Source: an uncultured Candidatus Rokubacteria bacterium
GTDB lineage: Bacteria > Methylomirabilota > Methylomirabilia > Rokubacteriales > DASRDR01
Direction of reading: 5' to 3'
NCBI GenBank assembly: GCA_963708025.1
Contig: CAVPSB010000037.1
Span: forward strand, 1 to 64,000
Length of the DNA stretch: 64,000 bases
The notes beneath the pieces were generated by a model, which worked only from the letters and a program-made list of their open reading frames with translations, made no database searches and was not told the origin of the DNA. The position numbers were made by a program, and so were the translations under genes. Shown piece after piece: positions 7,197 through 43,082 of this stretch. Numbering within the stretch: the stretch's first letter is position 1; each line of letters starts with the position of its first letter.

Positions 7197-7233
7197 TCGA
7201 GCAAATTCAGGTACCGGTGGACCGTGGGCTGGC

Positions 7234-9323: not shown

Positions 9324-9380
9324 GGTCGTCCTCCTCCTCCCGTCAGCCGGGCTTCGCCTCCAGGCCGATCCATGCCGACG

Positions 9381-9408
9381 ATCATGGCGACTTCCCGGTG
9401 GGAGTCAA
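9381..9408 (-). promoter_or_regulatory. Putative sigma70 promoter TTGACT-16-CATGAT for the MetE-like gene
   Basis: Reverse-strand hexamers about 60 nt upstream of the GTG start. Confidence 0.4.
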
Positions 9409-10897: not shown

Positions 10898-11054
10898 TCG
10901 GACCCGCGCCGTCCCGGGGGCCCTTCGGGCCCAACGGTGACCGCGAGGTCCGGCAACGAGGAGCGCCAGGGGGTCACGGCGCAGGCCGTGACCCCCTGGT
11001 CGTCTCGGGATCCCGGCGACGCCAGCGGCCAGATGTGCCCGGCGAGGCCGCCCC

Positions 11055-17185: not shown

Positions 17186-17389
17186 TTGGGCGAGCCGAAG
17201 CAGCTCTTCAGCGCAAGCCTGGCCCAGGACGCCGTCTACAAGACCGGTCTGCGCAGCTTCATGGAGTACCGCGACCTCGGCATCGAGAAGGCCACGCATG
17301 GCAAGTTCCGGGCCCACACCATCCGGATCAAGAAGGAGTCGGCCGGCAACCACGGGCTGCACACGACCGGCCTGCACCAGCACAACTGC
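17186..17389 (+). pseudogene. Cupin-domain protein, N-terminal fragment
   Basis: AGGAGG SD plus TTG; GLRSFMEYRDLGIEKATHGKFRAHTIR...TTGLHQHNC; similarity ends right after the first HxH. Confidence 0.65.
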
Positions 17390-17577
17390 CTAGCCGCCCA
17401 GGACAGCTCACCGACGTGGTCGCTGGAGGCCATGACGAGCTTCAGGTCCACGCCGGCCTGGCGGCCCGCTAGCGCCGCCGGCGTGGCGATCCTGGCTGCG
17501 CCTCACAATGGTGCTACGATACCCGTCCAGGGCCGGTCTCGGGCTTCCGGAAACCCGTGGCGCAAGGGGGGTCGGCG

Positions 17578-23715: not shown

Positions 23716-24645
23716 TCATGGGTCCACCGTTCCCTCCCGAGGACCCGCGGACAAGACACCCCGACAGGGTACGGCAGGCGATACGGCTACACCAAGGAAC
23801 CTGTCAAGCGAGGGCGAGGCAGAGGGCGGGCGGTCAATGCGTCGCGGCGGGGGGCGGCGCCCCGTCGTGACCGGCATGGACCCCGCCGTCCCGGACCGGT
23901 AGTCGAAGCCAACCGGCGCGTCGGATCGTCCGCCGCGCGGCTCCGGGGCGAGGTTCAAGCTCTCCTTGACCGGCGCGGTGTGCTCGCGCATGAGCGCCTC
24001 CGCCCGCGCGCCTTCGCCGGCTTCGAGCGCCTCGACGATCGCGTGATGCTGGCGGTGAGCGTACCGGAGGATGTCGAACATCGAGGCCTTGTCGAGCCGG
24101 TCGAAGGCCACCGCCCGGGCGGCCGCGAACGGCACGTGGTCGTTCCGGGCGAGGGCGTCGGCGATGGCGCGGCTGCCGGCGGTCTCGACGACGAGCGCGT
24201 GAAAGCGCCCGTTCAGCTCGCTGTATCGCGACTCGTCGGTCTCGAGCAGGTGGCCGCGGGCGAAGATCTCGTCACCGTCCGCCAGGCAGCGTCGCAGCTC
24301 CCGCAAGAGGTCCGGTGACGCGCCGCGCTCGGCCACCAGGCGGGCGGCCAGCCCTTCCAGCACCCCCCGCACGTCGAGCGCCTCGAGAACGTCGCGGGCG
24401 CTGAAGGCGCGGACCACGTAGCCGCGCGCGCCCGCGGGGGCAAGGAGCCCTTCCCGGGCCAGAGCGGGGAGCGCCTGCCGGATCGGCGTGCGCGAGACGC
24501 CGAGTCGCTCGGCCAGGGCGACCTCCCCGAGCCGCTCCCCGGGCGCCAGGTCGCCCCGCAGGATCATCTCCCGCAGCTCCACGACGATGCGCGACTCTCG
24601 GGTGGCCATGTCTCTCTGCCGCTCGGCGGCGCCGTTTGTATCCAT
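23716..24645 (-). CDS. GntR/FCD family transcriptional regulator, VanR-like (C-terminal tail may be read-through)
   Basis: LREMILRGDLAPGERLGEVALAERLGVSRTPIRQAL HTH; FCD domain with NGRFH, VPFAA, QHHAIVEALEAGEGARAEALMREH. Confidence 0.9.
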   Translation of the reverse strand: MDTNGAAERQRDMATRESRIVVELREMILRGDLAPGERLGEVALAERLGVSRTPIRQALPALAREGLLAPAGARGYVVRAFSARDVLEALDVRGVLEGLAARLVAERGASPDLLRELRRCLADGDEIFARGHLLETDESRYSELNGRFHALVVETAGSRAIADALARNDHVPFAAARAVAFDRLDKASMFDILRYAHRQHHAIVEALEAGEGARAEALMREHTAPVKESLNLAPEPRGGRSDAPVGFDYRSGTAGSMPVTTGRRPPPRRIDRPPSASPSLDRFLGVAVSPAVPCRGVLSAGPREGTVDP

Positions 24646-24697
24646 TCATGCCATACGAGCCGTCATCCGGCCACGTCGTGGGCTGGTTTGGATCCAA
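24636..24697. promoter_or_regulatory. VanR-type operator pair: TTGTATCCAT (24636..24645) and perfect palindrome TTGGATCCAA (24688..24697)
   Basis: Lies in the divergent region between the VanR-like gene and the catabolic operon; matches the core of the Caulobacter vanO operator ATTGGATCCAAT. Confidence 0.75.
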
Positions 24698-24816
24698 CTT
24701 TTCGGTTAGAGTAGCCATCCGAGGCCCCAACGGTCAAGAGCGGGAGGGTGGGACGCCGGCCCCGCGGTCCGGGAACCCGACCCCACGCGGCGGAGGTCCC
24801 GGCAAGGAGACCCGAC

Positions 24817-25939
24817 ATGCACGCGAGATCGATTCCACCATTTCGCGCCGACCACGTCGGCAGCCTGCTGCGGCCGCCCGAGCTGCTGGCGGCCCGGGAC
24901 CGGTACGCGCGCGAGGAGATCCCCGCGGCCGAGCTCCGCCAGGCGGAGGACCGCTCGATCCGCGACGCGGTGCGGCTTCAGGAAGAGCTGGGGTTCCGGG
25001 CCGCCACGGACGGCGAGCACCGGCGGACGTTCTTCCACATCGACTTCCTCGAGAAGCTGGAGGGGGTCGCGGTGCGGGGCGGGCTGGCGACGCGGTTCCA
25101 CGGCGCGAAGGGTGACGTGGACTTCGCCCCGCCCCGCCTGGAAGTGACCGGCAAGCTCCGCCGCGTCCGGCCGATCCAGCTCGAGGACTTCCGCTACCTC
25201 CAGTCGGTGGCGCGCGTGGTTCCCGAAGGTCTGCATCCCCTCGCCGACCATGGTACATTTCCGCGGAGGGCGGGGGGCGATCAGCCGCGAGGCGTACCCG
25301 GACCTGGAGGAGTTCTTCGGCGACCTGGCCCGCTGCTACCGGGAAGAGCTCGCCGACCTGGCCGGCGCCGGCTGCCGGTATGTCCAGCTCGACGACACCA
25401 ACCTGGCCTACCTCTGCGATCCGAAGCTCCGCGAGGGGGCGCGGGAGCGGGGCGACGATCCCGAGGCGCTGCCGCGCCGGTACGCCCGGCTCATCAACGC
25501 GGCGCTGCGCGATCGCCCGGCCGGCCTCACCGTGGGCATCCACCTGTGCCGCGGTAACTTCAAGAGCGCCTGGGTCGCCGAGGGAGGCTACGAGCCGGTG
25601 GCCGAGGTCCTCTTCAACGAGCTCGACGTTGACGGGTACTTCCTGGAGTACGACGACCATCGATCGGGGGACTTCGCCCCGCTCCGGTTCGTCCCGCGCG
25701 GCAAGAAGCTGGTGGTGCTCGGGCTCGTCACCTCCAAGGTGGGCGCACTCGAGCCGAAGGCCGAGCTGGCGCGGCGAATCCAGGACGCCGGCCGCTACGT
25801 GCCGCTGGAGCAGCTCGCGCTGAGCCCCCAGTGCGGCTTCTCCAGCACGGTGCACGGGAACCAGGTGACCTTCGAGGAGCAGCGGGCGAAGCTCGGGCTG
25901 GTGGTGGAGACCGCGGCCGAGGTCTGGGGCTCTCTCTGA
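24817..25939 (+). CDS. Core MetE-like (methionine synthase II, YxjH-type) zinc enzyme (frameshift near 25223)
   Basis: PPFRADHVGSLLRP, ATDGEHRR, YVQLDDT, IHLCRGN, FLEYD, LSPQCGFSST; AAGGAG SD. Confidence 0.9.
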
Positions 25940-25943
25940 GAGC

Positions 25944-26040
25944 CTGAAGGACTCGGGTCTTCGGCTCCCGCTCCCCCCGGCCACAGGCCGAAGGCCGTGA
26001 AGGGTGGGGGAGGGGGGCTGGGGGGGTAGGCGGGAGGCCC
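25944..26040 (+). repeat. Intergenic modular repeat (core at 25979) with a four-G-tract arm
   Basis: CTGAAGGACTCGGGTCTTCGGCTC...CCCCCCGGCCACAGGCCGAAGGCCGTGAAGGGTGGGGGAGGGGGGCTGGGGGGGTAGG. Confidence 0.85.
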
Positions 26041-26058
26041 GATCAGGAGGACGCCGTC

Positions 26059-26712
26059 ATGGCGATCGACGTCGAGAAGCTGAGGCGGACGGGGACGCCG
26101 AGCGACCTGCCGTTCTCGATCCGGAAGATCGGACACGTCGTCCTCCGCGCCTCCGACCTCCAGCGCTCGGTTGACTTCTACACGAAGGTGCTCGGGTTCG
26201 AGATCTCCGACGTCTACCCCGAGGAGATGGTGCCGGGCGGGATGGTCTTCATGCGCTGCAACGCGGACCACCACGGCGTCGCCCTCGTGGGCGGCATGTC
26301 CGGTCCCGCCGCCAAACGGGAGCTCGACCACTTCGCGTTCGAGGTCGCCACGCTCGACGAGGTATTCCGTGCCCGCCGGCACCTGCGGGAGCGCGGGGTG
26401 CCCGTCGTCTTCGAAGGCCGCCGCCGGGCCGGCGTGCAGATCGCCATCGAGTTCAACGACCCCGACGGGCACCACCTCGAGATCTACTGGGGGGTGGACC
26501 AGGTCGGCCCCGACGGCCGGGTCCGCCCCGCCGCGGAGTGGCGGGGCGCCAAGACGCTGGAGGAGGCGGTGGCGAACCCCGTGCCCGGCCAGCATCCGGC
26601 GCTCTCCGACCCAACCCTCCTCCAACCGGGGGCCATCGTTCCGGCCCCCCCCTCCCCCCCGGCCACAGGCCGAAGGCCGTCGAAGGGTGGGGGAGGGGGG
26701 CTGGGGGGGTAG
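26059..26712 (+). CDS. VOC-family protein resembling a one-domain type I extradiol dioxygenase
   Basis: IGHVVL, FYTKVLGF, NADHHGVAL, LDHFAFEV, FNDPDGHHLEIY; the last ~25 codons are repeat-derived. Confidence 0.85.
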   Translation: MAIDVEKLRRTGTPSDLPFSIRKIGHVVLRASDLQRSVDFYTKVLGFEISDVYPEEMVPGGMVFMRCNADHHGVALVGGMSGPAAKRELDHFAFEVATLDEVFRARRHLRERGVPVVFEGRRRAGVQIAIEFNDPDGHHLEIYWGVDQVGPDGRVRPAAEWRGAKTLEEAVANPVPGQHPALSDPTLLQPGAIVPAPPSPPATGRRPSKGGGGGLGG

Positions 26713-26726
26713 GAGGGAGGTCCCGA
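26641..26726 (+). repeat. Modular repeat copy overlapping the VOC 3' end and supplying the galB SD
   Basis: About 58 nt nearly identical to 25973..26030; ends GGAGGGAGGTCCCGA-ATG. Confidence 0.88.
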
Positions 26727-27434
26727 ATGACGGCCCTCGTGGTGAGCGCGCACGCGGCGGACTTCGTCTGGCGCTGCGCCGGCGCGATCGCTCTGTACGC
26801 CCGGCGCGGTTACGAGGTCACCATCCTGTGCCTGTCCTACGGCGAGCGCGGCGAGTCGGCCAAGCTCTGGCGCGAGCCGGGGATGACCCTGGAGCGGGTC
26901 AAGCAGAGTCGCCACCAGGAGGCGCAGGCGGCGGCGGACGTCCTGGGGGGGCGGCTCGTCACGTTCGACGCCGGCGACTACCCGCTCCGGCTCACCGACG
27001 AGCTGTTCGCCCGGCTGGTCGACCTGTACCGGGACGTCCGCCCGGCGTTCGTGCTGACCCACGCGCTCGAGGACCCCTACAACCGCGACCACCCGGACGC
27101 CGCGCGGCTGGCCCAGGAGGCGCGCATCGTCGCCCAGGCGCACGGCCACCGGCCAGAGCAGAAGGTGATCGGCGCGCCGCCCGTGTTCCTGTTCGAGCCC
27201 CACCAGCCGGAGCAGTGCAACTTCCGGCCGCAGGTGCTGCTCGCGATCGACGAGGTGTGGGAGGTCAAGCGGAAGGCGATGGAGTGCATGGCGGCCCAGG
27301 AGCACTTGTGGGAGTACTACACGCGCGTCGCGCTGCAGCGAGGCGTGCAGGCCGCCCGCAACTCGGACCGCCAGGTGAAGTACGCCGAGGCCTACCAGCG
27401 GATCTACCCCCAGGTCACGGACGCCCTGGCATGA
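26727..27434 (+). CDS. galB: 4-oxalomesaconate hydratase (PIG-L family)
   Basis: LVVSAHAADFVWRCAGAIA, LSYGERGESAKLW, DPYNRDHP, FLFEPHQPEQCNF, MAAQEHLWEYY. Confidence 0.9.
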   Translation: MTALVVSAHAADFVWRCAGAIALYARRGYEVTILCLSYGERGESAKLWREPGMTLERVKQSRHQEAQAAADVLGGRLVTFDAGDYPLRLTDELFARLVDLYRDVRPAFVLTHALEDPYNRDHPDAARLAQEARIVAQAHGHRPEQKVIGAPPVFLFEPHQPEQCNFRPQVLLAIDEVWEVKRKAMECMAAQEHLWEYYTRVALQRGVQAARNSDRQVKYAEAYQRIYPQVTDALA

Positions 27435-28585
27435 ACGGCGGACCGATGGGGCAGACCCGGATTCCCTGCCTGATGATGCGAGGCGGCACCTCGAAGGGTG
27501 CGTACTTCCTCGCCGCCGACGTCCCCGCGGATCCCGCGCGGCTCGAGCGGGTCCTGCTCGCCGTCATGGGCTCGCCCGACCGGCGGCAGATCGACGGGCT
27601 GGGCGGCGCGGATCCGCTGACCAGCAAGGTGGCCATCGTCGGCCCGCCGACCCGGGCCGACGCCGACGTTGACTACCTGTTCGCGCAGGTGGTCGTTGAC
27701 GAGCCGCGGATCGACCTCAACCAGAACTGCGGGAACCTCCTGGCCGGGGTGGCGCCGTTCGCGATCGAGCGCGGCCTGGTCGAGGCACGCGAGGGCGAGA
27801 CGCGGGTCCGCATCCACATGGTCAACAGCGCGAGCCTGGCCGAGGCCACCGTGCAGACGCCGGACGGGCGCGTCCGGTACGACGGCGAGGCCCGCATCGA
27901 CGGCGTGCCGGGGACGCACGCCCCGGTGCTGATCGACTTCCTGGACGTCGCCGGCTCGTCCTGCGGCGCCCTGCTGCCGACCGGCAACGCCGTTGACGTT
28001 CTCGATGGCGTCCCCTGCACGCTGATCGACAACGGGATGCCGGTGGTCGTGGTGGCGGCGGCCGCCCTCGGCCGCACGGGCTACGAGTCCAAGCCGGAGC
28101 TGGACGCGGACGACGAGCTCAAGCGTCGCGTCGAGGCGGTCCGCCTGAAGGCGGGACCGCTGATGAACCTGGGCGACGTCGCGCGGAAGAACGTGCCGAA
28201 GGTGTCGCTGGTGGCGCCGCCCCGGGCGGGCGGCGCCCTGTGCACCCGGACCTTCATTCCCCGCGACTGCCACGCGGCGATCGGCGTGCTCGGCGCGGTG
28301 ACGGTGGCGGCCGCCTGCGTGTGGCCGGGCTCGGTCGCGGCCGGGGTGGCGGTGGTGCCCGCCGGCGCCCGCAAGCGCCTGGCGATCGAGCACCCCAGCG
28401 GCGAGTTCACCGTCGAGCTGGACGTCGAGGAAGCCGGCGGCCGTCCCCGGCTCCGGCGCTCGGCGCTGCTGCGGACCGCCCGGCTCCTGTTCGACGGCTA
28501 CGTGCACGTGCCGGCCGGCGTCTGGGACGGCCGGAGCGGTCGGCCGGGGCCGGAGCAGCGGGCGGCCGCGGCGCCGGGACGCTGA
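27431..28585 (+). CDS. galD: 4-oxalomesaconate tautomerase (PrpF family)
   Basis: MMRGGTSKGAYF, MGSPDRRQIDGLGGADPLTSKVAIV, QNCGNLLAGV, IDNGMP, CHAAIGVLGAVTVA, EHPSG, LLRTARLLFDG; ATGA overlap with galB. Confidence 0.92.
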   Translation: MNGGPMGQTRIPCLMMRGGTSKGAYFLAADVPADPARLERVLLAVMGSPDRRQIDGLGGADPLTSKVAIVGPPTRADADVDYLFAQVVVDEPRIDLNQNCGNLLAGVAPFAIERGLVEAREGETRVRIHMVNSASLAEATVQTPDGRVRYDGEARIDGVPGTHAPVLIDFLDVAGSSCGALLPTGNAVDVLDGVPCTLIDNGMPVVVVAAAALGRTGYESKPELDADDELKRRVEAVRLKAGPLMNLGDVARKNVPKVSLVAPPRAGGALCTRTFIPRDCHAAIGVLGAVTVAAACVWPGSVAAGVAVVPAGARKRLAIEHPSGEFTVELDVEEAGGRPRLRRSALLRTARLLFDGYVHVPAGVWDGRSGRPGPEQRAAAAPGR

Positions 28586-28597
28586 CCGGGCGCCGCC

Positions 28598-30076
28598 GTG
28601 ATCCTCCACGCCAACCACATCGGGCCAGGCGGCGCTGCGCTGCCGGCGCTCAGTGAGAAGGCCGGCGAGGTCGTCCGGACGGTGCTGGGCCTCGTCGGGG
28701 AGGGGCGGTTCGACCCGCGCGTGGTGTCGGGTCTCCGCCTCCACCTCGACTGGATCCAGTACCGGGCCAACTTCCGGGAGCCGGTGACCGTCCGCCGGGC
28801 GACCGATCCGCGCGGGGGGACGGCCGCCCTCGCCGAGATCGCCGTCGACCTCCGCCGGGTCGAGCCGGCGTCCCTCCGCACCGCCCTCGCCGACGCCTTC
28901 CGCGCCGTGAGCGACGACGCGGCCCTCGATCCCTCCGGCGCGTCCGGGCGCCTCTACCTCGACGACTGGGTGCCGCTGCGCGACAGCGTGATCTGGCGGT
29001 TCAACCACCTCTTCTGGCAGCACGTGGCCGACTGGGAGGCCGCCGTCGGGCGGCGGTTCGAGGAGGCGCTGCCGAGCGGTCGCTCCGACGCCAACCACCC
29101 GGAGGCGGTGGCGGATTCGGTGGCCGACTTCTGGACCCTCCTGCGCGACCTGGAGAAGCGGGGGCGGCTTCCCGCCGAGCTGTTCGTGCTGGAGATCGGC
29201 GTGGGATCCGGGATGCGCGCCGGGCTCTGGCTGGACCGCTTCCGCGCGCTGGACGAGGAGCGGGGCACGACCTACTACCCGCGCCTGCGGTTCCTGCTCG
29301 GCGACTACTCGCTGCCGACGCTGGACCGCGCCCTGGCGGCGGTGGCGTCCCACGGCGACATCGTGAGCGTCATCGCCATGGACGCGCTGAACCCGCTCAA
29401 GACGCTTGCCTTCTTGCGATACAAGATCCTCTACGTCCACCTCACGAACGTCTACGACAACCTGCCCCACGACGAGCTGGTCCGTCGCGATGGCCGCCTC
29501 TACCTGGTCGAGGCCCGCGGCTACCTCTCGCGGGAGGACGCCGAGCGGATCGCGGCCGCCGCCGGGCTGGCGCCCGAGGCCGTCGGCCCGACGGTGGAGC
29601 ACCTGCTCCGGATCGGCCCCGGGGCCCTGGGGACGACGGATCGGGGGGTCGCGTTCTGGCGGGCGGTGTGGGACGCCCTCCGCCTGGAGGAGCGGCTCGT
29701 ACAGCTGGACGACGTCGCCCAGGCGCCCATCCCGCCCGGGCTCGACCGGAGCCATCTCGAGGACCTGCTGGGCGAGGCCCCGGACGACGTGCGCTTCCAC
29801 CTCTCGCGGGGCGCCGCCGAGAGCTTCGTCCACACCGTGCCCCTCCTCCATCCGCGCGGCTACCTCCAGGTCCAGGACATCTTCGTGACCGACATGCACG
29901 AGTACCGGCAGGGCTTCCGCGGGCCCGGCAAGCTCGACGGGTCGGTCGTGAACTGGGTCAACGGCGCCCTCCTGCGCGCGATCGGGGCGCGCGCGGGCTA
30001 CGACGTCCACTTCGCGCCGTTCCGGTACCGGGCGGGGTCGCGGACGTCGATCCTCTACACCACCCCGCGGGAGTGA
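28598..30076 (+). CDS. Class I SAM-dependent methyltransferase-like protein (MidA/NDUFAF7-like) with an extra N-terminal domain
   Basis: Motif I VLEIGVGSG; acidic end of strand 2 (LRFLLGDYS); LTNVYDNLP resembling the SNELFDALP motif; LLHPRGYLQVQD. Confidence 0.75.
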   Translation: MILHANHIGPGGAALPALSEKAGEVVRTVLGLVGEGRFDPRVVSGLRLHLDWIQYRANFREPVTVRRATDPRGGTAALAEIAVDLRRVEPASLRTALADAFRAVSDDAALDPSGASGRLYLDDWVPLRDSVIWRFNHLFWQHVADWEAAVGRRFEEALPSGRSDANHPEAVADSVADFWTLLRDLEKRGRLPAELFVLEIGVGSGMRAGLWLDRFRALDEERGTTYYPRLRFLLGDYSLPTLDRALAAVASHGDIVSVIAMDALNPLKTLAFLRYKILYVHLTNVYDNLPHDELVRRDGRLYLVEARGYLSREDAERIAAAAGLAPEAVGPTVEHLLRIGPGALGTTDRGVAFWRAVWDALRLEERLVQLDDVAQAPIPPGLDRSHLEDLLGEAPDDVRFHLSRGAAESFVHTVPLLHPRGYLQVQDIFVTDMHEYRQGFRGPGKLDGSVVNWVNGALLRAIGARAGYDVHFAPFRYRAGSRTSILYTTPRE

Positions 30077-30081
30077 CGTCG

Positions 30082-31080
30082 ATGTCGGAGCTCTTGCCCA
30101 CCGCCGTCGTCGGAAGCTACGCGATGCCCGGGTGGCTCGAACGGGTGAAGAACGACTACCTGCACCGCCGGCTGTCCCGCCACGACCTCGACGACATCCA
30201 CGACACCGCGGTGAAGGCGGCGATCAAGGACCAGGAAGTGGCCGGCGTCGACATCGTCTCGGACGGGGAGCTCCGCCGGGAGAACATGATCGATCACTTC
30301 ACGACCCGGCTCCCCGGGGTCGAGATCGACCACGCGTCGAAGCGCTCCTACTACGATCTGTACGACTGCGTGGTGCGCGGGCGGCTCCCCACCGGCTCGC
30401 TCGGGCTGGTCGAGGAGTTCCGCTTCCTCCGGCGCTTCACCGACCGGCGCGCGAAGATCTCCGTCACCGGCCCCCACTCGCTCGTCAAGCGCATCCGCAA
30501 CGCCCACTACCCGAGCGACGAGGCCTTCGCCCTCGACATCGCCCGCGTCCTGAACGTCGAGCTGCGCGAGCTGGTGCGGGCGGGGGCGACCGACATCCAG
30601 ATCGACGAGCCGTACTACTCGGGGTTCCCCGAGGACCTGCCGTGGGGCGTGCGCGCGATCAACGCGCTCGTCGAGGGCGTGGGGGCGTGGCTGTCGCTCC
30701 ACGTCTGCTACGGGAACCGCTACGGCAAACCCTCGTGGGAGGGGAGCTACCGCTACCTGTTCCCGGCGATCCTCGACGCGCGCGTGAACCAGCTCACGCT
30801 GGAGTTCGCGCGACGAGGCGACGAGGACGTCCGGCTCTTCAAGGAGTTCGATCCGCCGTTCACTCTTGGCCTCGGCGTCATCGACGTGAAGAGCCACGAG
30901 GTCGAGACCCCGGGGATGGTCGCCGAGCGGGTCCGCGCCGGCCTCGACGTCGTGCCGGCGGCCCGGCTCGCGATCAACCCGGACTGCGGGCTCCTGCACC
31001 TCCCCCGGGCCGTCGCGTTCGCGAAGCTGGGGGCGATGGTGGACGGGACGCGGATCGTGCGCCGGGAGGTCGGCGGCTGA
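30082..31080 (+). CDS. Core (single-barrel) cobalamin-independent methionine synthase
   Basis: PTAVVGSYAMP, DQEVAGVDIVSDGELRR, TGPHSL, IQIDEP, Zn ligands LHVCYGN / LEF / NPDCG. Confidence 0.88.
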   Translation: MSELLPTAVVGSYAMPGWLERVKNDYLHRRLSRHDLDDIHDTAVKAAIKDQEVAGVDIVSDGELRRENMIDHFTTRLPGVEIDHASKRSYYDLYDCVVRGRLPTGSLGLVEEFRFLRRFTDRRAKISVTGPHSLVKRIRNAHYPSDEAFALDIARVLNVELRELVRAGATDIQIDEPYYSGFPEDLPWGVRAINALVEGVGAWLSLHVCYGNRYGKPSWEGSYRYLFPAILDARVNQLTLEFARRGDEDVRLFKEFDPPFTLGLGVIDVKSHEVETPGMVAERVRAGLDVVPAARLAINPDCGLLHLPRAVAFAKLGAMVDGTRIVRREVGG

Positions 31081-32583
31081 ACAGTCTGGCGGCGGCGCTC
31101 CAGGGTGGCCGCTTCTGCTACGTCGTGGAGCTGGTCGCCTCGGCCCTCAGTCGCGAGGCGAAGCTCCTCGAGGTGGCCTCGGGCCTCGCCCGTCTCCCTG
31201 ACGTGGTGGCCGGGAGCGTCACCAGCTACGCGGGGGGCGCCATGGGCCACGACCCGATCCGGGTCGGCGCCGCCGCCCGCGCCCGGGGGCTCACGCCCAA
31301 CGTCCACCTGACGTGCGTCAGCCAGGACCGCCAGGCCGTGCGCAAGACGCTCGAGGACCTCCACGCCCTCGGGATCGAGAACGTCTTCGCGCTCACCGGC
31401 GACTATCCGCGATCCGGGCCCGCCGGGAAAGACCGGCCGGCCGAGCCGCCGGTGTTCGACCTCGACTCGGTCCAGCTCGTCCGCCTGATCGACGACCTCC
31501 GCCGGGCGGGCCGGGGCTTCCACGTCTCGGTCGCGGTCTCCCCGTTCAAGTACATCGAGGCGGACTGCCTCTGGCAGTACCTGAAGCTCGAGAAGAAGAT
31601 CGCCGCCGGCGCCGACTGCGCCATCACCCAGGTCGGCTGGGACGCGGAGAAGTTCCGCGAGCTCAAGCGCTACCTCGGCGAGCGCGGGCTGACCACGCCG
31701 CTCCTCGGCAACGTCTACGTCCTCGGCCCGCGCACCGCCGAGCGGATGAGCCGGGGCGAGCCGCCGGGGTGCTGGGTGTCGCCGGCGCTGCTGGCTACCG
31801 TCCAGCAGGAGAGCCGGGCCCCGGACGGCGGCCGGCGCGCCCGCCTGGAGCGCGCCGCGCGGACGGTCGCGGTGCTCCGCGGCCTCGGGTACGCCGGCGC
31901 CTACATCGGCGGCACCCACGACCCCGCGCACATCGAATGGATCGTCCGCCGGGCGGCGGAGCTGGCCCCGCGCTGGGAGGAGCTGGCCGTGGAGCTAGCC
32001 TACGGCGCCGAGGACGGGTTCTACCTGTACGCGGATCGCGGCCGCGGCGCCCGGTCGGCGACGCCGGCCGGCGCGCCCCCGCTCCGCCCGCCGCCGGGCC
32101 AGGGGCGGCTGGTCACGGCGATCGTGCCGCGCGCCCTCGACCTCCTGGGCCGGCTCTTCCCGGTGACGCGCGACACCTGGCTCCGCCGGGCCCTCCGCCG
32201 GCTCGGCGCGCGGGTGGACCGGATCCCGGCGCTGGCGGGCGCGGTCGAGCGCGTCGAGCGGGCGGTGAAGACGCCCCTCTTCGGCTGCCAGTCCTGCGGC
32301 AACTGCGTGCTCGGCCACCTGGAGTACGTCTGCCCGCAGACGTGCCCGAAGCAGCTCCGGAACGGCCCGTGCGGGGGCACTCACCTCGGGCGCTGCGAGG
32401 TGGTGCCGGACCAGCCGTGCATCTGGGTCGGGATGTACGAGCGCGCCCGCGCGGGCGGCCGGGTCCACGGGCCTGCTCACCTACGTGCCGCCGCCGGCCC
32501 GGTCGCTCCAGGGCACCAGCTCCTGGCTCAACTACCTCCTCGAGCGCGACAGCCGACCCTCGACCCTCGCCCCCGACCCGTAG
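31077..32583 (+). CDS. metF: Methylenetetrahydrofolate reductase fused to a Cys-rich MTHFR_C (MetV-like) domain; CTG start; frameshift near 32470
   Basis: NVHLTC, NVFALTGDYP, VSPFK, KKIAAGADCAITQVGWD; C-terminal FGCQSCGNC...CPQTCPKQLRNGPCGG...CEV...CIW; tail LQGTSSWLNY in shifted frame to TAG 32583. Confidence 0.88.
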
Positions 32584-32608
32584 CTGGCCCGACCTCCTCA
32601 CGGACGCG

Positions 32609-32662
32609 CCCTGCAAGCTGGTCCCCAATGCCCACATTGAGAGCTTCCGCAGTCGATTCCGT
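32609..32662 (+). mobile_element. Degenerate IS3-family transposase (integrase core) remnant
   Basis: Translates PCKLVPNAHIESFRSRFR, matching the PGKPxQNAxIESFNGRxR motif around the catalytic Glu; locally lower GC. Confidence 0.5.
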
Positions 32663-32702
32663 GCTCCCTCTCCCTCCCGTGGGAGGGCGAGGTTAAGAAG
32701 GG

Positions 32703-33692
32703 TCAGCCGTCGCCCACCTCGAGGAGGAGCTTGCCGCTGACGCCCCGCCCCTCCAGGTGCCGGTGCATGTCCGAGCAGGCCGCCATCGGATAGCGCGCTT
32801 CGATCGGGATCGCGAGCCGCCCCTGGAGCAGCGCATCCAGGACGTAGCGGACCCCGCGCCGCCAGCGCGGCGAGCCCGGCCGGGCGTGCAGGAGCTCGAA
32901 CCCGGCCAGGCTCGTGGAGCGCTCGTAGAGCTTGGGTCGGACGGGGAAGTCGGGATAGCCGGCCGCCTCGCCGATGTTGATCACCCGGCCGAAGGGTCGC
33001 AGCAGTTCGAAGCTGCGCGGCAGCACGTCGGCCCCCAGCGAGTCGATCACCAGATCCACGCCGCGCCCCCGGGTGAAGGCCATCGTGGCGGCGACGAAGT
33101 CCTCCCGGCTCCGGTCGATCACGCGGTCGGCGCCGAAGGCCAGCGCGCGGGCGGCCTTGGCCGCCGACCCGGTGGTCCCGATGACGCGGGCCCCGAACGC
33201 CTTGGCGAGCTGCGTGAGGCAGAGCCCGACGCCGCCGCCGATGGCGTGCACGAGGATCGTCTCGCCCTCCCGCACCCGGTGGGCGGTGCGCAGGAGGTGA
33301 TACGCGGTGAGCGCGACGACCGGAAAGGCGGCGCCGAGCTCGAGCGGTAGCGCCTCGGGAAGCGGAACGACGTAGGACGCCGGTACCGCCACGCGCTCGG
33401 CGTAGCCCCCCAGCATGCGGGGACCGGTCAGGGCCGCCACGCGGGCGCCGACCGTCACGTCGCGCACGGCCGACCCGACGGCCGCCACCCGCCCGGAGAC
33501 TTCGAGCCCGATGATCGCCGGGTAGCTGACCGGCTCGGGATAGACCCCTTGCCGCTTCTGGACGTCGCTCCAGTTACAGCCGGCCCAGGCGACCTCGATC
33601 AGCACCTCGTCGGGCTCGGGGAGCGGCGCCGGGAGCTCGCGCAGGGCGAGCGCCTCGGGGTCGCCCGGGGACTCGACCACGATGGCCCGCAT
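32703..33692 (-). CDS. NADPH:quinone oxidoreductase-like MDR enzyme
   Basis: MRAIVV, GCNWSDVQKRQGVYP, GLEVSG, LVHAIGGGVG, TRGRGVDLVIDSLG, SGKLLL. Confidence 0.93.
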   Translation of the reverse strand: MRAIVVESPGDPEALALRELPAPLPEPDEVLIEVAWAGCNWSDVQKRQGVYPEPVSYPAIIGLEVSGRVAAVGSAVRDVTVGARVAALTGPRMLGGYAERVAVPASYVVPLPEALPLELGAAFPVVALTAYHLLRTAHRVREGETILVHAIGGGVGLCLTQLAKAFGARVIGTTGSAAKAARALAFGADRVIDRSREDFVAATMAFTRGRGVDLVIDSLGADVLPRSFELLRPFGRVINIGEAAGYPDFPVRPKLYERSTSLAGFELLHARPGSPRWRRGVRYVLDALLQGRLAIPIEARYPMAACSDMHRHLEGRGVSGKLLLEVGDG

Positions 33693-33727
33693 CCGGTCGG
33701 AGGCGACTCGGCGATCTCCGGCGACGG

Positions 33728-34534
33728 TCACGCTGGGCGGGCAGGGGGCCGGGCGCCCGCGCGGGGGAACGCGGCCTCGAGCGAGTGGACCACGAGCTCC
33801 ACGCACTCGTCGGTCAGCAGCCGGCCGATCTCGGCCGTCGCGGCCTTCGCCGGGGACAGCACCCCCGTCGGCGGGATCCAGCTCGTGTCCGTGGGGTAGA
33901 CGTCGTAGGGTGGGGGCGCCGCCGGGGGATCGTTCGGGACCTGGCCCATGTCTACGCGGTCCGGGAAGAGGTGGAGCATCAGCGCGGTCTCGAGGACGCC
34001 GGCGTGCTCGAGATCGAGGCCGGGGAAGCCGTGCGGGAAGATCCGGGCCAGGGTCTCCGGCCGGATCGTCTCGCAGTACCGCATCTTGAGGACGCGGAGG
34101 TCCTCCGGTCCCTCGGCCCGGGCGTCGCGGATCGCGAGGTCGATCCCCTCGGTGAGGAACATCTGGTTCTCGTAGTGACCGTCGATCAGGGCGATCCGCC
34201 GGGCGCCGTGGCGGGCGAACTCGCGGAGGAGGTCGCGGACGGTTGACGTCAGGGTCCCGCCGTCCAGGCTGGTGGTGCCGCAGAAGTGGTTGCCGCCGCC
34301 GGTGCGCGGCTGGGACTTGTAGCCGTAGGTCAGCGCGGGGGCGACGACGCCGCCGAGCCGCTCGGCCACCCGGCGCGCCATCTCCGTCGCCAGGATGGCG
34401 TCGGTCCCCAGCGGGAGGTGCGGGCCGTGCTGCTCGAGGGCGCCGACCGGAAGCAGCACGACGGCGCCCTCCGTCGCCACCCGCTCCCGGTACTCGATCC
34501 ACGACATCTCCGACATGAAGACCGAACGGGCCAT
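33728..34534 (-). CDS. Creatininase (creatinine amidohydrolase) family
   Basis: LLPVGALEQHGPHLPLGTD, YGYKSQPRTGGGNHFCGTTSLDG, IDGHYEN, EHAGVLET; AAGGAGG SD. Confidence 0.92.
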   Translation of the reverse strand: MARSVFMSEMSWIEYRERVATEGAVVLLPVGALEQHGPHLPLGTDAILATEMARRVAERLGGVVAPALTYGYKSQPRTGGGNHFCGTTSLDGGTLTSTVRDLLREFARHGARRIALIDGHYENQMFLTEGIDLAIRDARAEGPEDLRVLKMRYCETIRPETLARIFPHGFPGLDLEHAGVLETALMLHLFPDRVDMGQVPNDPPAAPPPYDVYPTDTSWIPPTGVLSPAKAATAEIGRLLTDECVELVVHSLEAAFPRAGARPPARPA

Positions 34535-37460: not shown

Positions 37461-37552
37461 ACCCCTCCCCCCGCCACAGGCCGAAGGCCGTCCGATCAGT
37501 GGGGAGGGGTCGCCAAAGGCCGGAGGCCGTCGAAGGGTGGGGGAGGACCCGA
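37461..37552 (+). repeat. Modular repeat with two cores (37473, 37512), ending at the next start codon
   Basis: ACCCCTCCCC...core...GGGGAGGGGT forms an outer stem; second core, then GGGTGGGGGAGGACCCGA-ATG. Confidence 0.85.
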
Positions 37553-38912
37553 ATGACCGCGCCGGCCGGCCGCACGGCGCTCTTCACCAACGCCCACGTC
37601 GTCACCATGGACGACGCCGGCACCGAGCACCCGGGCGGCTGGCTCCTGGTCGGCCAGGGCCGGATCCAGGCGGTGGGCGGCGGGCGGCCGCCGGCGGCCG
37701 ACGAGACCGTGGACCTCGGGGGCGCCGTCGTCACCCCGGGCCTCGTCAACGTGCACCACCACATCTACCAGAACCTCACCCGGACCCGGGCCCAGGAAGG
37801 CAACCTCCTCGAGTGGCTCCAGGCCCTGCTCCCGATCTGGGCGGGTCTCGACGCCGAGGCCGAGTACGCCGCCGCCCGCGCCGGGCTGGCCGAGCTCGCG
37901 CTCTCGGGCTGCACGACCGTCTTCGACCATCACTACGTGTTCCCCCACGGCCGCCCCGGCCTCGTGGAGGCCGAGGTCCAGGCCGCGCGGGAGCTGGGCG
38001 TCCGCATCGTGGCCGCCCGGGGCTCGATGGACCTGGGGCAGTCGCGGGGCGCGCTGCCGCCGGACTCGATCGTGGAGGACGTCGACCGGATCCTCGCCGA
38101 CACCGAGCGGGTGGCCCGGCTCCACGAGCCGGGCCCCGGCGCGTGGGTGCAGATCGTGGTGGCGCCCTGCACGCCGTTCACGGCGTCGCGGGAGCTCATG
38201 CTCGAGTCCGCCCGGCTCGCGCGACGGCTGGGGCTGCGGCTCCACACCCACCTGGCCGAGACGGTCGAGGACGAGGCCCTCTGCGTGCAGCAGTACGGCT
38301 ACCGGCCGATCGACTACCTGGCGGACGTCGAGTGGCTGGCGCCGGACGTCTGGTGCGCCCACTCCATCCACCTCGGGTTCGCGGACGTGCAGCGGCTCGC
38401 CCGGACGCGCACCGGGGTCGCCCACTGCCCCACGTCGAACCTGCGCCTCGGGCGCCGGGGTGGCCCCCATCCGGGCCATGCTCGACGCCGGCGTTCCGGT
38501 GGGCCTCGGGGTGGACGGCCCGGCGTCCAACGAGCGGAGCGACATGCTGGCCGAGGCGCGCCAGGCGCTCCTGGTGGCCCGCGGTCACGGCGGCCCGGCG
38601 GCCATGACCGTCCGCCAGGCGCTCCGGCTGGCGACGCGGGGCGGGGCGACCGTGCTGGGGCGCGCGGACATCGGCGCCCTCGAGCCGGGCAAGTGCGCGG
38701 ACTTCGCCGTCTGGCGGACCGACGGCCTGGCCTTCGGCGGCGCCGACGATCCGGTGGCCGCCCTCCTCCTCTCCGGCCCCTACCGGGTCGACCGGCTGTA
38801 CGTCGGGGGCGCGGCGGTCGTGGCCGACGGCGCCCTCGTGCGCGCCGACGAGCGGGAGATCATCCGGTTACACCGCCAGCAGGCCCGCCGCTTCGTGGGG
38901 CAGGGCCGATGA
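37553..38912 (+). CDS. 8-oxoguanine deaminase-like amidohydrolase (frameshift near 38452)
   Basis: TPGLVNVHHHIYQNLTR, LSGCTTVFDHHY, APCTPF, LHTHLAET, AHCPTSNLRLG, GLGVDGPASNE, GALEPGKCAD. Confidence 0.9.
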
Positions 38913-38974: not shown

Positions 38975-39148
38975 CTACTTGTCCTTGATGGCCGCCTGGA
39001 CCTTCTTGGCCACGTCGGGCGGGATACTGGACATGCCGTGCGCCTTCTTGGCGTGCTCGGCGCCCTTGGCCATCACCTCGGCCTCGTCCTTGCCCTCGAT
39101 CACGGCGTTGCAGCCGGGCATGAGATCCCCGCATCGAAGTTGCTTCAT
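38975..39148 (-). CDS. DUF1059-like small metal-binding protein
   Basis: MKQLRCGDLMPGCNAVIEGKDEAEVMAKGAEHAKKAHG (Cx6C...Hx4H); GAGGA SD. Confidence 0.85.
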   Translation of the reverse strand: MKQLRCGDLMPGCNAVIEGKDEAEVMAKGAEHAKKAHGMSSIPPDVAKKVQAAIKDK

Positions 39149-39159
39149 GTCGTTCCTCA

Positions 39160-40776
39160 CTACTTCGCCAGGAATGCCTTCGCCTGGCGAATCTCGGGTC
39201 GTTCGGAGTCCGCCTTGTCGGCCAGCGCCAGCACGCGGTCGTAGTACGCGCGCGCCCGGGCGCGGTCGCCGGCGGCCTCGGCGGCACGGGCGGCGCCGAA
39301 GAGACCGCGGAAGCGGTTCGGGTCGTTCTTCTGCGAGCGGTCGAACTCGGCGAGCGCCGCCGCCGGCTGCCCCAGGTCGAGCAGCATGTCGGCGAGCATC
39401 TCGCGGGCCGGGAAGAGCGCGCCCGGCGTCACCGGGTGCTTCTCGGTCGCGTCCTCGCGGTCGGCCGCCTGCCGCATCAGCATCAGCGCTTCCTCGTTCC
39501 GGCTCTCGGCGCGCGCGATCCAGGCGGAGACCGCCAGCCGCTGGATCTCGCTCTGCTCGGCCCAGTAGCCGACCTTGGCGGCGGTGAGGGCGTCCCGGAG
39601 CGCCTCCAGGCGCGCCGCGCTCTGTTGCGCGTCGGCCACGTTGCCGCTGCGGGCGGCGCCGATGCCGCGCGCGAACCAGGTGATCGACTCCGCCTGCGGG
39701 TACTTGTTCCACGGCAGCTCCTTCGGCGTCGGCGTCAGCGCCGCCGCCGAGACCCAGTCGCCGCGCTCGAGCGTGTAGCGCGCAGGGATGGCGGCCAGCG
39801 CGAAGGCGCCCGCGAAGTGGTCGACGTTGACCTTGCGCGTGGCGAGGACCTCCTCCACGAGCGCCCTGGCCTCGCGGTCCCTCGCCAGCTGCATGTACGC
39901 GTACATCATGTAGTCGTAGGCGTGCAGCGCCTCGTAGGAGCGCAAGCCGGTGGTGTTGTCGCGGAGCGCCTCCTGGGCGGCGCGGGCGGAGGCGCGGTTG
40001 GAGTCGATCGACTCCTGCCAGGCGCCCACGCGCGTGAAGATGTGCGAGGGCATGTGCTGGGCGTGGGGCGCGGCCGGCGCGATGGACGCGTAGCGCCGCG
40101 CGGCGCCGAGGCCCTTCTGCGCGATCGGCGGGAAGTCGTAGGAGTGGATGAGGTAGTGCGCCACGCCGGGATGGTTCGGCTGCTCGGCGAAGACCTTCTC
40201 GAGGATCGAGGCGGCCTTGAGCTGGTTGGCGTAGGTCTTGTCGGCGGGATTGAGCGTCATGTTGAGCGCGAGCGAGTAGAAGACCGCCGCCTCCCGATCG
40301 TCCGGATAGCGCGCGGCCAGCTGCTCCATCGCCTTCTCGTACGCCGTCGCGCGCGTCTTGTGGTCGACCTTGTCGGCGTCCTTGTAGATCTGCTCGATGG
40401 CCGCCACGTAGTCTCGCTCGCGCTGGGTCTTCGCCCCGGCCGCCTTCGCCTTCTCCACCGCCGCCCAGCCTTCCTTGAGGCCCTGCGCGCTCGGCGGCGC
40501 CGCCAGCGGGTTCCCCATCCACGCCATCGCCACGCCCCACCAGGCGATGCCGCAGCTGGGGTCGGTCTGCGCCGCCTCTGTGAAGGACTTCATGGCGGCG
40601 TCGAGCCAGAAGGAGTGCAGCAGGGCGACGCCCCGAGTGAAGGACGGCTGCGCCGCCGCCGCGCACGAGGTCTGGAAGCTGACCTGCCCGAGACGATCCG
40701 CCGACGGCGCCTGCGCGAACACCACGCCGGCCACGATAACGACGAGGACGCTCAGCAGCCCGATGACTCTCCGCAT
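39160..40776 (-). CDS. Exported TPR-like helical protein
   Basis: Signal peptide; LGQVSFQTSC, GVALLHSFW, HPGVAHYLIHSYD, HAQHMPSHIFTRVG, PNRFRGLFG. Confidence 0.88.
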   Translation of the reverse strand: MRRVIGLLSVLVVIVAGVVFAQAPSADRLGQVSFQTSCAAAAQPSFTRGVALLHSFWLDAAMKSFTEAAQTDPSCGIAWWGVAMAWMGNPLAAPPSAQGLKEGWAAVEKAKAAGAKTQRERDYVAAIEQIYKDADKVDHKTRATAYEKAMEQLAARYPDDREAAVFYSLALNMTLNPADKTYANQLKAASILEKVFAEQPNHPGVAHYLIHSYDFPPIAQKGLGAARRYASIAPAAPHAQHMPSHIFTRVGAWQESIDSNRASARAAQEALRDNTTGLRSYEALHAYDYMMYAYMQLARDREARALVEEVLATRKVNVDHFAGAFALAAIPARYTLERGDWVSAAALTPTPKELPWNKYPQAESITWFARGIGAARSGNVADAQQSAARLEALRDALTAAKVGYWAEQSEIQRLAVSAWIARAESRNEEALMLMRQAADREDATEKHPVTPGALFPAREMLADMLLDLGQPAAALAEFDRSQKNDPNRFRGLFGAARAAEAAGDRARARAYYDRVLALADKADSERPEIRQAKAFLAK

Positions 40777-41053: not shown

Positions 41054-41993
41054 CTAGCTCTCTTCCTTCCGGTAGGGGATCCCCGCCGCCGCCGGGGCCG
41101 GTGAGCGCCCGACCAGCCCGCACATGGCCAGGAGGGCGAGGACGTAGGGGAGCATGACCGGGAGCTGGTAGGGGATCCCGAGGTCGTAGGTCTGGATCCG
41201 GAGCTGGAGGGCGTCGGCGGCCCCGAAGATGAGGCAGGCCGCGAAGGCCCCGACCGGGTGCCACTTCCCGAAGATGATCGCGGTCAGCGCGATGAAGCCC
41301 CGGCCGGCGCTCATGTTCTCCGTGAACATGTTGACGTGGGAGATCGACAGGAACGCGCCGCCGATCCCGGCCATGATGCCGCTGACGATGACGCAGGTGT
41401 AGCGGATCCCGGCGACGCTCAGCCCCGCGGTGTCGGCCGCCCGCGGGTACTCGCCGACGGCGCGCACCGCCAGACCCCAGGGCGTCTTCAGCAGCACCAC
41501 GGTGGCGATCGGGAGCAGGACGGCGAGGAGGTAGACGAGCGGGGTCTGGCGGAAGAGCGATCGGACCGAGCACCGGGATGTCGCCGAGCAGAGGGATCGG
41601 CAGCATCTCGAAGGCCCGCACCCGCTCGACGTTGGCGCCGCGCAGGATGACGCGGCTCAGATACGTCGTGCCGCCGAGTGCGAGCAGGTTGAGCGAGACG
41701 CCCGTCACGACCTGGTTCGCCCCGAACGAGACGCAGGCGACCGCGTGCACCAGCGCGAGGGCCCCGCCGGCCAGCCCCGCCACCAGGACGGCCACCCAGA
41801 GGTTCCCGGTCAGGTGGCTCCCCATGACCGCGCCGAACGCCCCGCCCAGCATCATGCCCTCGAGCGCGATGTTGAACACGCCGGAGCGCTCGGAGAACAC
41901 CCCGCCGACGGCGGCGAACCCCAGCGGCGTGGCCATCCGGACGTGGCGGTCGAGGAAGTCGACCAGGACCTGGAAGCTAAGAAAGCTCGACAT
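41054..41993 (-). CDS. Nucleoside/simple-sugar ABC permease 2 (frameshift near 41555)
   Basis: FSERSGVFNIALEGMML, ANQVVTG, TPWGLAVRAVGEYPRAADTAG, GRGFIALTAIIFGKWHP, MLPYVL. Confidence 0.9.
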
Positions 41994-43082
41994 TCGTCCG
42001 ACTCGACGGCCGGCGCCGGCGCCGGCCGGCCGTCGCCGCCGCGGAGGAAGCGCCGGGCCGGCTGCCAGTGATGGAGCACGAGCCCGAGGGTCAGGAGGAA
42101 GATGGACAGGCCCTGGATGACGATGACGATGGCGACCGGCGTCCCCACCGCCCGCTGCATGAGGCTGCCGCCGCTCCGGAGCGCGCCGAAGAACAGCGAC
42201 GTGGCGATGACGAGCAGGGGCTCGTTGCCGGCCAGGAAGGCAGCGGCGATCGCGTCGAAGCCGTAGCCGGGCGAGAACCGGTCGAAGAGCCGATACTTCA
42301 GGCCCATGACCTCACCGGCGCCCGCGAGTCCCGCGAGGGCGCCGGAGCGAACATGACGCCGAGCATCGTCCGCCGCACCGACATGCCGCCGTAGGCCGCC
42401 GCCGACGGGTTGAAGCCGACCGCGCGGATCCGGTAGCCGAGGGCGGCCCGGTGGAGCACCCAGTGCAGCACGACCGCGGCCGCCGAGGCCGAGCAGGATC
42501 CCGGCGTGGGCGTCGGCCTCGGGCAGGATGAGCGGCAGGTGCGCCGACTCGAGCAGCACCGGCGAGAAGGGGTACGGCGCGCCGGGCTCCATCATGGGAC
42601 CGTTCACCACGTAGCCGACCCCGTAGATCGCGATGTAGTTCATGAGCAGGGTGGTGATGACCTCGTTCACGCCCCGGCTGACGCGCAGGTAGGCCGGCAG
42701 GAGCGCCCACAGCCCGCCAGCCACGCCGCTGGCGGCCAGCGCGAGCGGGATGTGGAGCAGCGGCCGGGAGCCCGGGAACGTAGAGTCCGACCCACGCCGC
42801 GCCCAGGCCGCCCAGGTAGATCTGCCCCTCGGCGCCGATGTTGAAGAGGCCGACACGCGCGGCCAGGGCGACGCCGAGGCCGGCCAGGAGGATCGGGGCC
42901 ATCTTGGTGAGGGTGGCGCCGAAGCCGAAGACGTCGCCGAAGGCGCCGTGGGCGACCGCCCAGTAGGCGGTCCACGGATTCCCGCCGGCCAGGCTGATGA
43001 AGGCCGCGCCGAGTCCGAGCGCGAGACAGAGCGCCCAGACCGGGACCAGCCGGAAGACGAACCGCCGCCAGCGCCCGCTCAC
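41990..43082 (-). CDS. Nucleoside/simple-sugar ABC permease 1 (about three indels; 3' end approximate)
   Basis: GLFNIGAEGQIYLG, GVNEVITTLLMNYIA, GYRIRAVGFNP, SGALAGLAG, GYGFDAIAAAFLA across several frames. Confidence 0.85.

Follow-up and report, generated by a model that had tools for sequence, protein, structure and literature searches.

Only two folate-dependent methionine synthases, MetH and MetE, are well understood. MesA, MesB, and MesC, which belong to anaerobes that use methanogenesis or the Wood-Ljungdahl pathway, receive the methyl group from corrinoid proteins. The core single-barrel MetE of aerobes, MesD (structure 3RPD), needs an unrelated, noncorrinoid partner and no B12, and, in the part of the source available to us, it is described as requiring oxygen and not requiring methyl-tetrahydrofolate (methyl-THF) (PMC7857596). 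The same part describes a split MetE, whose catalytic barrel is separate from a Meth_synt_1-type partner barrel and whose donor is presumed to be methyl-THF (PMC7857596); split MetE and MesC are the only entries among the predicted methionine synthases in the portion of the GapMind 2026 report that we could draw on (PMC13759103). The methyl donor of the core MetE enzymes of aerobes, MesD/MesX included, is an open question. Here, we describe a locus in a 64,000-nucleotide (nt) stretch of DNA from an uncultured Candidatus Rokubacteria bacterium (contig CAVPSB010000037.1, positions 1 to 64,000; the window), in which a protein of 492 amino acids (aa), UNK492, is encoded directly ahead of a core MetE-family enzyme, MetEc, and of a methylenetetrahydrofolate reductase (MTHFR) with a cysteine-rich tail, MetFV. 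We consider it probable that the three proteins form one functional unit making methionine. The more specific proposal, that the trio is a new multiprotein, B12-independent methionine synthase and that UNK492 serves in it by presenting or relaying the methyl-THF methyl group, has in our judgment an even chance of being right. From sequence comparison, the trio would be a core methionine synthase with an obligatory partner, and the pairing with a MidA-fold protein would be new; a literature search with little coverage of subscription journals found no paper linking a MidA-like protein to a core MetE.

As seen from the codon-position gene call and the list of open reading frames (ORFs), the three genes are codirectional on the plus strand of the window, which has a G+C content of approximately 72%:

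28598..30076, plus strand: UNK492, GTG start at 28598 and stop ending at 30076, 492 aa; predicted MidA/COG1565-like class I methyltransferase fold with an extra N-terminal region of approximately 115 aa
30082..31080, plus strand: MetEc, ATG at 30082 and TGA at 31080, 332 aa; single-barrel (core) MetE-family homocysteine methyltransferase
31077..32583, plus strand: MetFV, MTHFR with a Cys-rich DUF5981 (MetV-like) tail; CTG at the homologous start; one frame change
32455..32470, plus strand: site of the MetFV frame change, probably one extra base in the window

The initial annotation had described three tightly coupled genes with a 5-nt gap followed by a CTGA overlap, and both junctions were found again. 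The gap between UNK492 and MetEc spans 30077 to 30081, and the CTG of MetFV (31077 to 31079) overlaps the TGA of MetEc (31078 to 31080). The homologues of UNK492 begin at the same place as UNK492, with the motif MI(L/I)HxNH. For MetFV, the CTG at 31077 is the sole candidate codon where the homologues carry ATG or GTG, the next canonical start being GTG 31125. MetFV carries both MTHFR (PF02219, 81.8 bits) and DUF5981 (PF12225, 84.2 bits), the combination that marks a MetFV-type protein. The earlier reading of the third gene as an MTHFR with a MetV-like tail was therefore sound in its domains, while its end at 32583 is reached only with the frame change. As read in the window, the frame extends to 32696, and the conserved C terminus (...YVPPPxRSLQGTSSWLNYLLERD) sits in a different frame, ending at 32583; with each of three homologues, tblastn aligned MetFV as two pieces, with the switch near 32455 to 32470. 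Since related contigs from two public runs have one base fewer at 32468/32469, the break most likely corresponds to one extra base in the assembly or to a strain difference, and we did not read it as decay. These runs contain at most one third of the sampled words of the stretch and represent relatives, not this strain. A promoter and terminator scan of 24000 to 33800 gave nothing useful. In Rfam searches of 10 loci at the gathering threshold, no family except one tRNA and no known riboswitch was observed, and at an E value of ≤0.5, 4 of those 10 loci gave only chance microRNA-like hairpins.

MetEc had been annotated as a 332-aa single-barrel MetE with all zinc ligands, which was confirmed. 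It matches Meth_synt_2 (PF01717) over residues 5 to 322 (E value of 5e-40; 138.2 bits against a cutoff of 21). Across 25 orthologues, neither the zinc ligands (H207, C209, E241, and C302) nor the homocysteine ligands (S12, E63, and D175) vary, the roles being taken from the available part of PMC7857596. MetEc reached no curated NCBIfam methionine synthase model. The best one was PRK04326 (277 bits, cutoff of 406), with orthologues from two other phyla scoring 251 to 291 bits; we take PRK04326 to be the split MetE model, as a guess. PRK00957 gave 147 bits (cutoff of 258), and the canonical MetE models TIGR01371 (90 bits, cutoff of 930) and PRK05222 (91 bits, cutoff of 541) aligned only in their C-terminal half. 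The closest solved structure was 3RPD, with 145 bits from the single sequence and 214 bits from a profile. The available part of PMC7857596 sets at least 560 bits (approximately 72% identity) to ACIAD3523 as the mark of MesD; with 3RPD as a stand-in for ACIAD3523, the 145 bits of MetEc lie far under that value. In a tree of the orthologues and the paralogues from the same genome, a set that holds no MesA to MesD references, 14 MetEc orthologues from five phyla formed one clade (support 95/96) apart from full MetE and from the catalytic half of split MetE. As far as curated models go, this outcome favors the initial annotation.

The folate site of MetEc differs from that of MetE. In Thermotoga maritima MetE, W539, E583, R493, and R496 are named as folate contacts in the available part of PMC539065. 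We mapped these by hand onto the MetEc alignment (chain index = native number + 32). W539 corresponds to an invariant Arg137, E583 falls in an 8-residue loop missing from both MetEc and 3RPD, and R493 and R496 have no MetEc equivalent. Compared with canonical MetE, as far as PMC539065 describes it, MetEc shares the catalytic barrel and the zinc and homocysteine ligands, whereas it lacks the N-terminal barrel and the folate contacts. Judging by these residues, MetEc is a true core enzyme that is predicted to be unable to hold methyl-THF in the way of MetE, because the folate contacts of the C-terminal barrel are lost.

These features invite a comparison with the described partner-dependent enzymes. 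The likeness to MesD/MesX consists of a core MetE with a partner, 3RPD being the nearest solved relative of MetEc. In contrast to MesX, the UNK492 partner has a predicted MidA fold, not DUF1852, and, unlike MesD/MesX as described in the available text, the module is linked to MTHFR by gene order and by fusions. MesX (DUF1852, PF08908) was absent from the annotated neighbors and had no match in the window's own genome, the latter being a weak negative since the control search matched in no genome. With split MetE, the module shares the separate encoding of the catalytic barrel and a second protein, as well as PRK04326 as the best NCBIfam model of MetEc. However, UNK492 would have a Rossmann-type methyltransferase fold instead of a Meth_synt_1-type barrel, and MetEc lacks the folate contacts reported for the C-terminal barrel of MetE; no match to PF08267, the Meth_synt_1-type partner, was found on the window's contig. 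The algal "MetE-fusion" differs from the module in its domains. The initial annotation had also stated that no known partner of a core MetE is encoded in the window, and indeed no corrinoid protein, MesX, or Meth_synt_1 was observed among the 54 ORFs or ORF pieces of the window scanned with Pfam; gene 58 and four other short ORFs (1 to 146, 6220 to 6402, 12794 to 13042, 17236 to 17451, and 38975 to 39160) lay outside that scan. Two additional genes of the MetE family, both broken, are present in the window.

The trio is conserved across genomes, a point that the initial annotation had proposed to check. One genome per species was scanned, which gave 80 loci distributed over Methylomirabilota/Rokubacteria, Acidobacteriota, Binatota, Chloroflexota, and Actinomycetota. 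MetEc directly followed UNK492 in 78 of them, the remaining 2 loci ending too early. The median distance between the two genes was 30 nt by tblastn, and in four of nine gene-called loci (L061, L079, L016, and L024) the ORFs share or overlap stop and start by 1 or 4 nt. Among 151 genomes sampled from the window's phylum, UNK492 was present in 26, and MetEc orthologues (67 to 84% identity) occurred in exactly the same 26, always adjacent to UNK492; the next class of MetE-like proteins in the 151 genomes is only 41 to 46% identical to MetEc. DUF5981 was found in 32 of the 151 genomes, including all 26. MetFV lies downstream in 59 of the 80 loci and upstream in 11, is absent despite room in 5 (L053 and four Acidimicrobiales), and could not be assessed in 5 more. 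In Actinomycetota and Chloroflexota, the operon order is PucR-type regulator, homocysteine S-methyltransferase plus MTHFR, MetV, MetF, UNK492, MetEc, and S-adenosylmethionine (SAM) synthetase (MetK), and the Nonomuraea operon adds PurU and a PfkB kinase. Over all 80 loci, neighbors included a PucR-type regulator (10 loci), homocysteine S-methyltransferase (9), MetK (8), PurU (6), and PfkB (4). Formate-THF ligase was observed after the trio in 12 loci, in Bryobacterales and relatives, and formate-dehydrogenase-like genes neighbor the trio in L043, the one Bryobacterales locus annotated there.

UNK492 had no match to a Pfam or NCBIfam family at an E value of ≤0.01, and a sequence search of the PDB gave no relative; profile searches gave nothing or marginal methyltransferase matches (7dmb, E value of 0.044). 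Homologues are plentiful (2,436 at an E value of ≤1e-3 among 8,000 candidates scored), and the module is widespread in uncultured soil phyla. The 120 homologues listed are 70 to 92% identical and 456 to 504 aa long, carry no precomputed Pfam domain, and, where named, are all "hypothetical." The AlphaFold2 model of UNK492, built from an alignment of 30 sequences, had a mean predicted local distance difference test score (pLDDT) of 82.8 and a predicted template modeling score (pTM) of 0.80. When this model was compared with the PDB using Foldseek, COG1565/MidA entries took ranks 1, 2, 5, 7, 8, and 9 (E values of 1.4e-7 to 4e-6); the top matches were 4f3n (E value of 1.4e-7), followed by 4g67, 5zu0, 5ztz, and 1zkd, and the remaining matches were class I SAM methyltransferases throughout. 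In VIA-align, class I enzymes all scored Z values of 16 to 17.7, and the MidA family gave by far the longest aligned stretches, 272 to 290 residues at Z values of 16.8 to 17.0. The matches to 1zkd (Z of 17.0, root mean square deviation of 3.4, 272 aa) and 5zu0 (Z of 17.0, 287 aa) both cover model residues approximately 116 to 492, and the first approximately 115 residues aligned to no structure in VIA-align. The 492-aa protein had been described as a MidA/NDUFAF7-like SAM fold behind an unrecognized N-terminal domain, and the model, Foldseek, and VIA-align agree on this.

Sequence identity to the MidA-family structures is 9 to 12%. Methyltransf_28 (PF02636) was touched at an E value of ≤1 by 10 of 27 wider family members (best, 1e-7) and occurs in 15 to 18% of the language-model neighbors of the homologue P0060; UNK492 itself does not reach PF02636, and no PF02636 match was found anywhere in its own genome. 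Altogether, the comparison supports the view that the modeled UNK492 shares the MidA/COG1565 three-dimensional architecture, the MidA/NDUFAF7/COG1565 structures 4f3n, 4g67, 5zu0, 5ztz, and 1zkd being its best overall match. Unlike MidA/NDUFAF7, UNK492 has the extra N-terminal region of approximately 115 aa, and it is partnered in genomes with MetE and MTHFR instead of with respiratory Complex I.

We also observed that the three proteins occur as fusions. A UNK492 profile search of 1.84 billion representatives gave 1,048 relatives at an E value of ≤1e-3, and 17 of those listed, 13 of them at least 637 aa long, were chosen for a Pfam scan. In six of the 17, an MTHFR domain precedes or follows the UNK domain, accompanied in two of the six by DUF5981, and four more have the same MTHFR-UNK architecture with a diverged MTHFR-like half. 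The proteins P0153, P0164, P0181, P0229, P0253, and P0316 are MTHFR(+DUF5981)-UNK fusions. The fusions come from Gemmatimonadaceae, Planctomycetota, Elusimicrobiota, and Binataceae, and in the fused UNK domains the glycine-rich motif I is degraded to E-I-G-V/I-A/S-S. On the side of MetEc, 27 long relatives comprised fusions to MetK (6), PfkB (5), S-adenosylhomocysteine (SAH) hydrolase (1), and MTHFR (3; P0289, P0303, and P0304), besides ordinary MetE (5). Also among the 27, P0291 (865 aa) is a UNK492-MetEc fusion whose halves are joined through two residues, and P0305 shows part of the same arrangement. A model of P0291 from a 16-row alignment (mean pLDDT of 67.2, pTM of 0.47) was too poor to place the halves relative to each other. 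Taken together, the fusions appear to tie the three proteins pairwise and to place MetEc in the methionine/SAM cycle.

In eukaryotic MTHFR, the regulatory domain is not known to have a class I fold, and its fold differs from that of the UNK domain. In the accessible parts of two reports, this SAM-binding domain is described as appended to MTHFR (PMC5995969, PMC11018872), so that the likeness to the MTHFR-UNK fusions lies in an MTHFR joined to a SAM-binding module; in the window, by contrast, UNK492 is encoded as a protein of its own, linked to a core MetE. The fusion P0210 (MTHFR-UNK) had no match in metagenome contigs, and P0288 was absent from 121 genomes around a Binatia genome. A search with P0219 led to one locus, L114, where a 987-aa MTHFR-like plus UNK fusion (region 7001 to 11016) has a 4-nt overlap with the next gene; this pair is situated between fatty-acid synthesis genes and SMC.

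Some genomes may depend on the module. Three Bryobacterales genomes of 5.7 to 7.4 Mb and of unreported completeness (G018 to G020) gave no match to MetH at 1e-20, and neither an S-methyl_trans domain nor a full MetE was found in them; the best MetE-family match was the MetEc beside UNK492, and the MTHFR of the trio was the only MTHFR match per genome. In these genomes, methyl-THF made by the reductase of the trio would have no other evident consumer among those known. A second core MetE paralogue occurs in two of these genomes, at 7393 to 8451 of L112 (G020) and 7214 to 8272 of L113 (G019), divergent beside a luciferase-like monooxygenase. Its best model was PRK09121 (273 bits, cutoff of 392), and it may be another partner-dependent, perhaps oxygen-dependent, core enzyme.

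In the favored reading, MetFV, by its family membership, would reduce methylene-THF to methyl-THF, and the zinc site of MetEc, its ligands being intact, would activate homocysteine and take the methyl group. UNK492 would be the obligatory partner of MetEc, replacing the absent folate-handling half and presenting or relaying the methyl group from methyl-THF. We favor this role because MetEc has lost its folate site, because UNK492 is its only invariable neighbor, and because fusions of the UNK domain to MTHFR recur. Binding of the proteins to each other, methyl-THF as the donor, and the handing over of a methyl group by a protein shaped like a SAM methyltransferase are all inferred steps. A bolder version, which we hold only tentatively and think rather doubtful, makes UNK492 and MetEc a third chemical solution beside MetH and MetE, in which the MidA-fold protein, possibly with bound SAM or SAH as a cofactor, relays the methyl group of methyl-THF from MetFV to the zinc-activated homocysteine on MetEc, and on which some soil Acidobacteriota would rely as their sole methionine synthase. 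The module would offer a second partner-dependent core enzyme that, unlike MesD/MesX, has a clear link to methyl-THF, and the bacterial MidA/COG1565 fold, which is poorly understood, would gain a new function. Tools for pathway reconstruction would then need the module, or else some soil bacteria would be miscalled as methionine auxotrophs. As the module is present in cultured Nonomuraea, it is experimentally accessible.

Several observations weigh against the proposal of a new methionine synthase. Across 30 UNK492 sequences from four phyla, 90 of 492 positions are invariant, and they include hallmarks of SAM binding, namely, E199-x-G201-x-G203-x-G205, D236, and N284-x-Y286-D287-N288-L289-P290, with D262 being near-invariant. 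We take the motifs E199 to G205, D236, and N284 to P290 to be SAM contacts, and as such they point to a putative SAM chemistry; beyond this core, numerous Trp, Tyr, and Phe residues are likewise invariant. To our knowledge, no class I methyltransferase fold uses methyl-THF, and no invariant Cys able to carry a methyl group was found in the 30 UNK492 sequences. The module is also usually redundant: full MetH was found in 22 of the 33 pair-carrying genomes examined and full-length MetE in 5 (in one of them across a frame break), and in the window's own genome, another contig carries a full metE-metF pair. The expected absence of metH and full metE from genomes with the trio held in only 3 of the 33. 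Most fusions, moreover, are represented by one database entry each, and merges made during gene calling across sequencing errors could have produced them. Finally, the gene downstream of the L114 fusion encodes 351 aa with no Pfam match and is not MetE-like.

The SAM motifs are accounted for by two other explanations, neither of which accounts for the missing donor of MetEc. In the one, which we consider unlikely, UNK492 is an ordinary SAM-dependent methyltransferase with a high-demand acceptor, either a small molecule or a macromolecule, and its SAM is regenerated by a private methyl cycle built from MetFV and MetEc, which MetK, PfkB, and PurU join in some phyla. The class I MidA-like fold with SAM methyltransferases as every top structural neighbor, the conserved motif I, D236, and N-V-Y-D-N-L-P motif, the operons that add MetK, PurU, and the PfkB kinase, and the fusions of MetEc to MetK, PfkB, and SAH hydrolase are all consistent with such a cycle. 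However, it leaves the strict mutual pairing of the MetEc clade with UNK492 (26 and 26 of 151 genomes) unexplained and MetEc, lacking folate contacts, without a methyl donor; many genomes already have a MetH or MetE able to recycle homocysteine; and no acceptor-pathway gene is conserved beside the trio in the 80 loci, nor is SAH hydrolase found in the annotated operons. The initial annotation had offered both a partner or methyl shuttle and a SAM-regeneration module, and we prefer the former because of the strict pairing, the fusions, and the three genomes whose sole MTHFR lies in the trio. The other explanation, improbable to a similar degree, takes UNK492 as a noncatalytic SAM/SAH sensor that throttles MetFV and MetEc, or as a MidA/NDUFAF7-like modifier or maturation factor that methylates a residue of a partner. 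Here, the repeated fusion of the UNK domain to MTHFR would mirror the eukaryotic regulatory domain as it appears in the accessible parts of PMC5995969 and PMC11018872, the degraded motif I of the fused forms would fit a sensor, and the titles of the PDB entries for the closest, MidA folds name protein arginine methylation and Complex I assembly; as the Rfam searches, covering 10 loci at the gathering threshold and 4 of these at an E value of ≤0.5, revealed no riboswitch, control could be allosteric. Yet the 90 invariant positions, many of them outside the nucleotide-binding core, are more numerous than one would expect of a sensor, the eukaryotic domain is called unique in the accessible part of PMC11018872, and MetEc would again lack a methyl donor unless MetF itself presents methyl-THF.

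To a catabolic role we give very little credence. In it, the methyl group of methylated compounds would pass to homocysteine through MetEc or to THF, and MetFV would run in reverse, oxidizing methyl-THF toward formate. In the window, the trio follows catabolic genes at a 12-nt gap after PrpF, the genome has approximately 20 MetE-family matches, and neighbors elsewhere include PurU, formate-THF ligase, and the formate-dehydrogenase-like genes of L043. Nevertheless, the catabolic neighbors are peculiar to the window's genome, with just two weak PrpF/PrpD-type matches among the 80 other loci; what is conserved in addition to the trio is anabolic (MetK), MetEc retains its homocysteine-binding residues, and in three genomes the MTHFR of the trio is the only one. 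The catabolic reading fits only the local neighbors of the window.

Those catabolic genes lie 5′ of the trio. PrpF, in 27431 to 28598, ends 12 nt before UNK492, and PIG-L deacetylase, glyoxalase, PrpD, coenzyme A-transferase, and acyl-coenzyme A dehydrogenase genes are found upstream of PrpF. Among the genes of this region is one further member of the MetE family:

24838..25927, plus strand: PRK06520-like member of the MetE family, broken in the same manner as MetFV by a frame change near 25203 to 25226

In 17 of the 80 loci, intact orthologues of this gene were observed upstream of UNK492, no more than 8 kb away, and an intact orthologue scored 286 bits with PRK06520 against a cutoff of 313; the gene is probably not part of the module. 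A third MetE-family copy in the window, at 8196 to 9323 on the minus strand, is fragmentary. Elsewhere in the window's own genome, a split-MetE-like pair lies on another contig, no MetH activation domain was found, and Meth_synt_2 gave approximately 20 matches (27 with the PRK04326 model). MetE-like barrels are greatly expanded in this genome, and the majority cannot all serve as methionine synthases. AhcY adjoins MetK in the same genome, which ruled out UNK492 as a substitute for an absent SAH hydrolase.

Other genes of the window are fragmentary as well, at 3354 to 3851, 6591 to 7196, 37499 to 38912, 41054 to 42724, and 53638 to 54360 (ABC substrate-binding protein, amidohydrolase, BPD_transp_2 permease, and M20 peptidase), which suggests many small assembly indels or real gene decay. 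A 1,524-aa ORF at 54391 to 58965 (plus strand) combines a zinc ribbon, an adenylate/guanylate cyclase, an AAA_16 ATPase, TPR, and a C-terminal M19 membrane dipeptidase, and its M19 domain may have been merged in through a frame error. At 9731 to 10897 (plus strand), a transaldolase with a C-terminal EF-hand motif is encoded.

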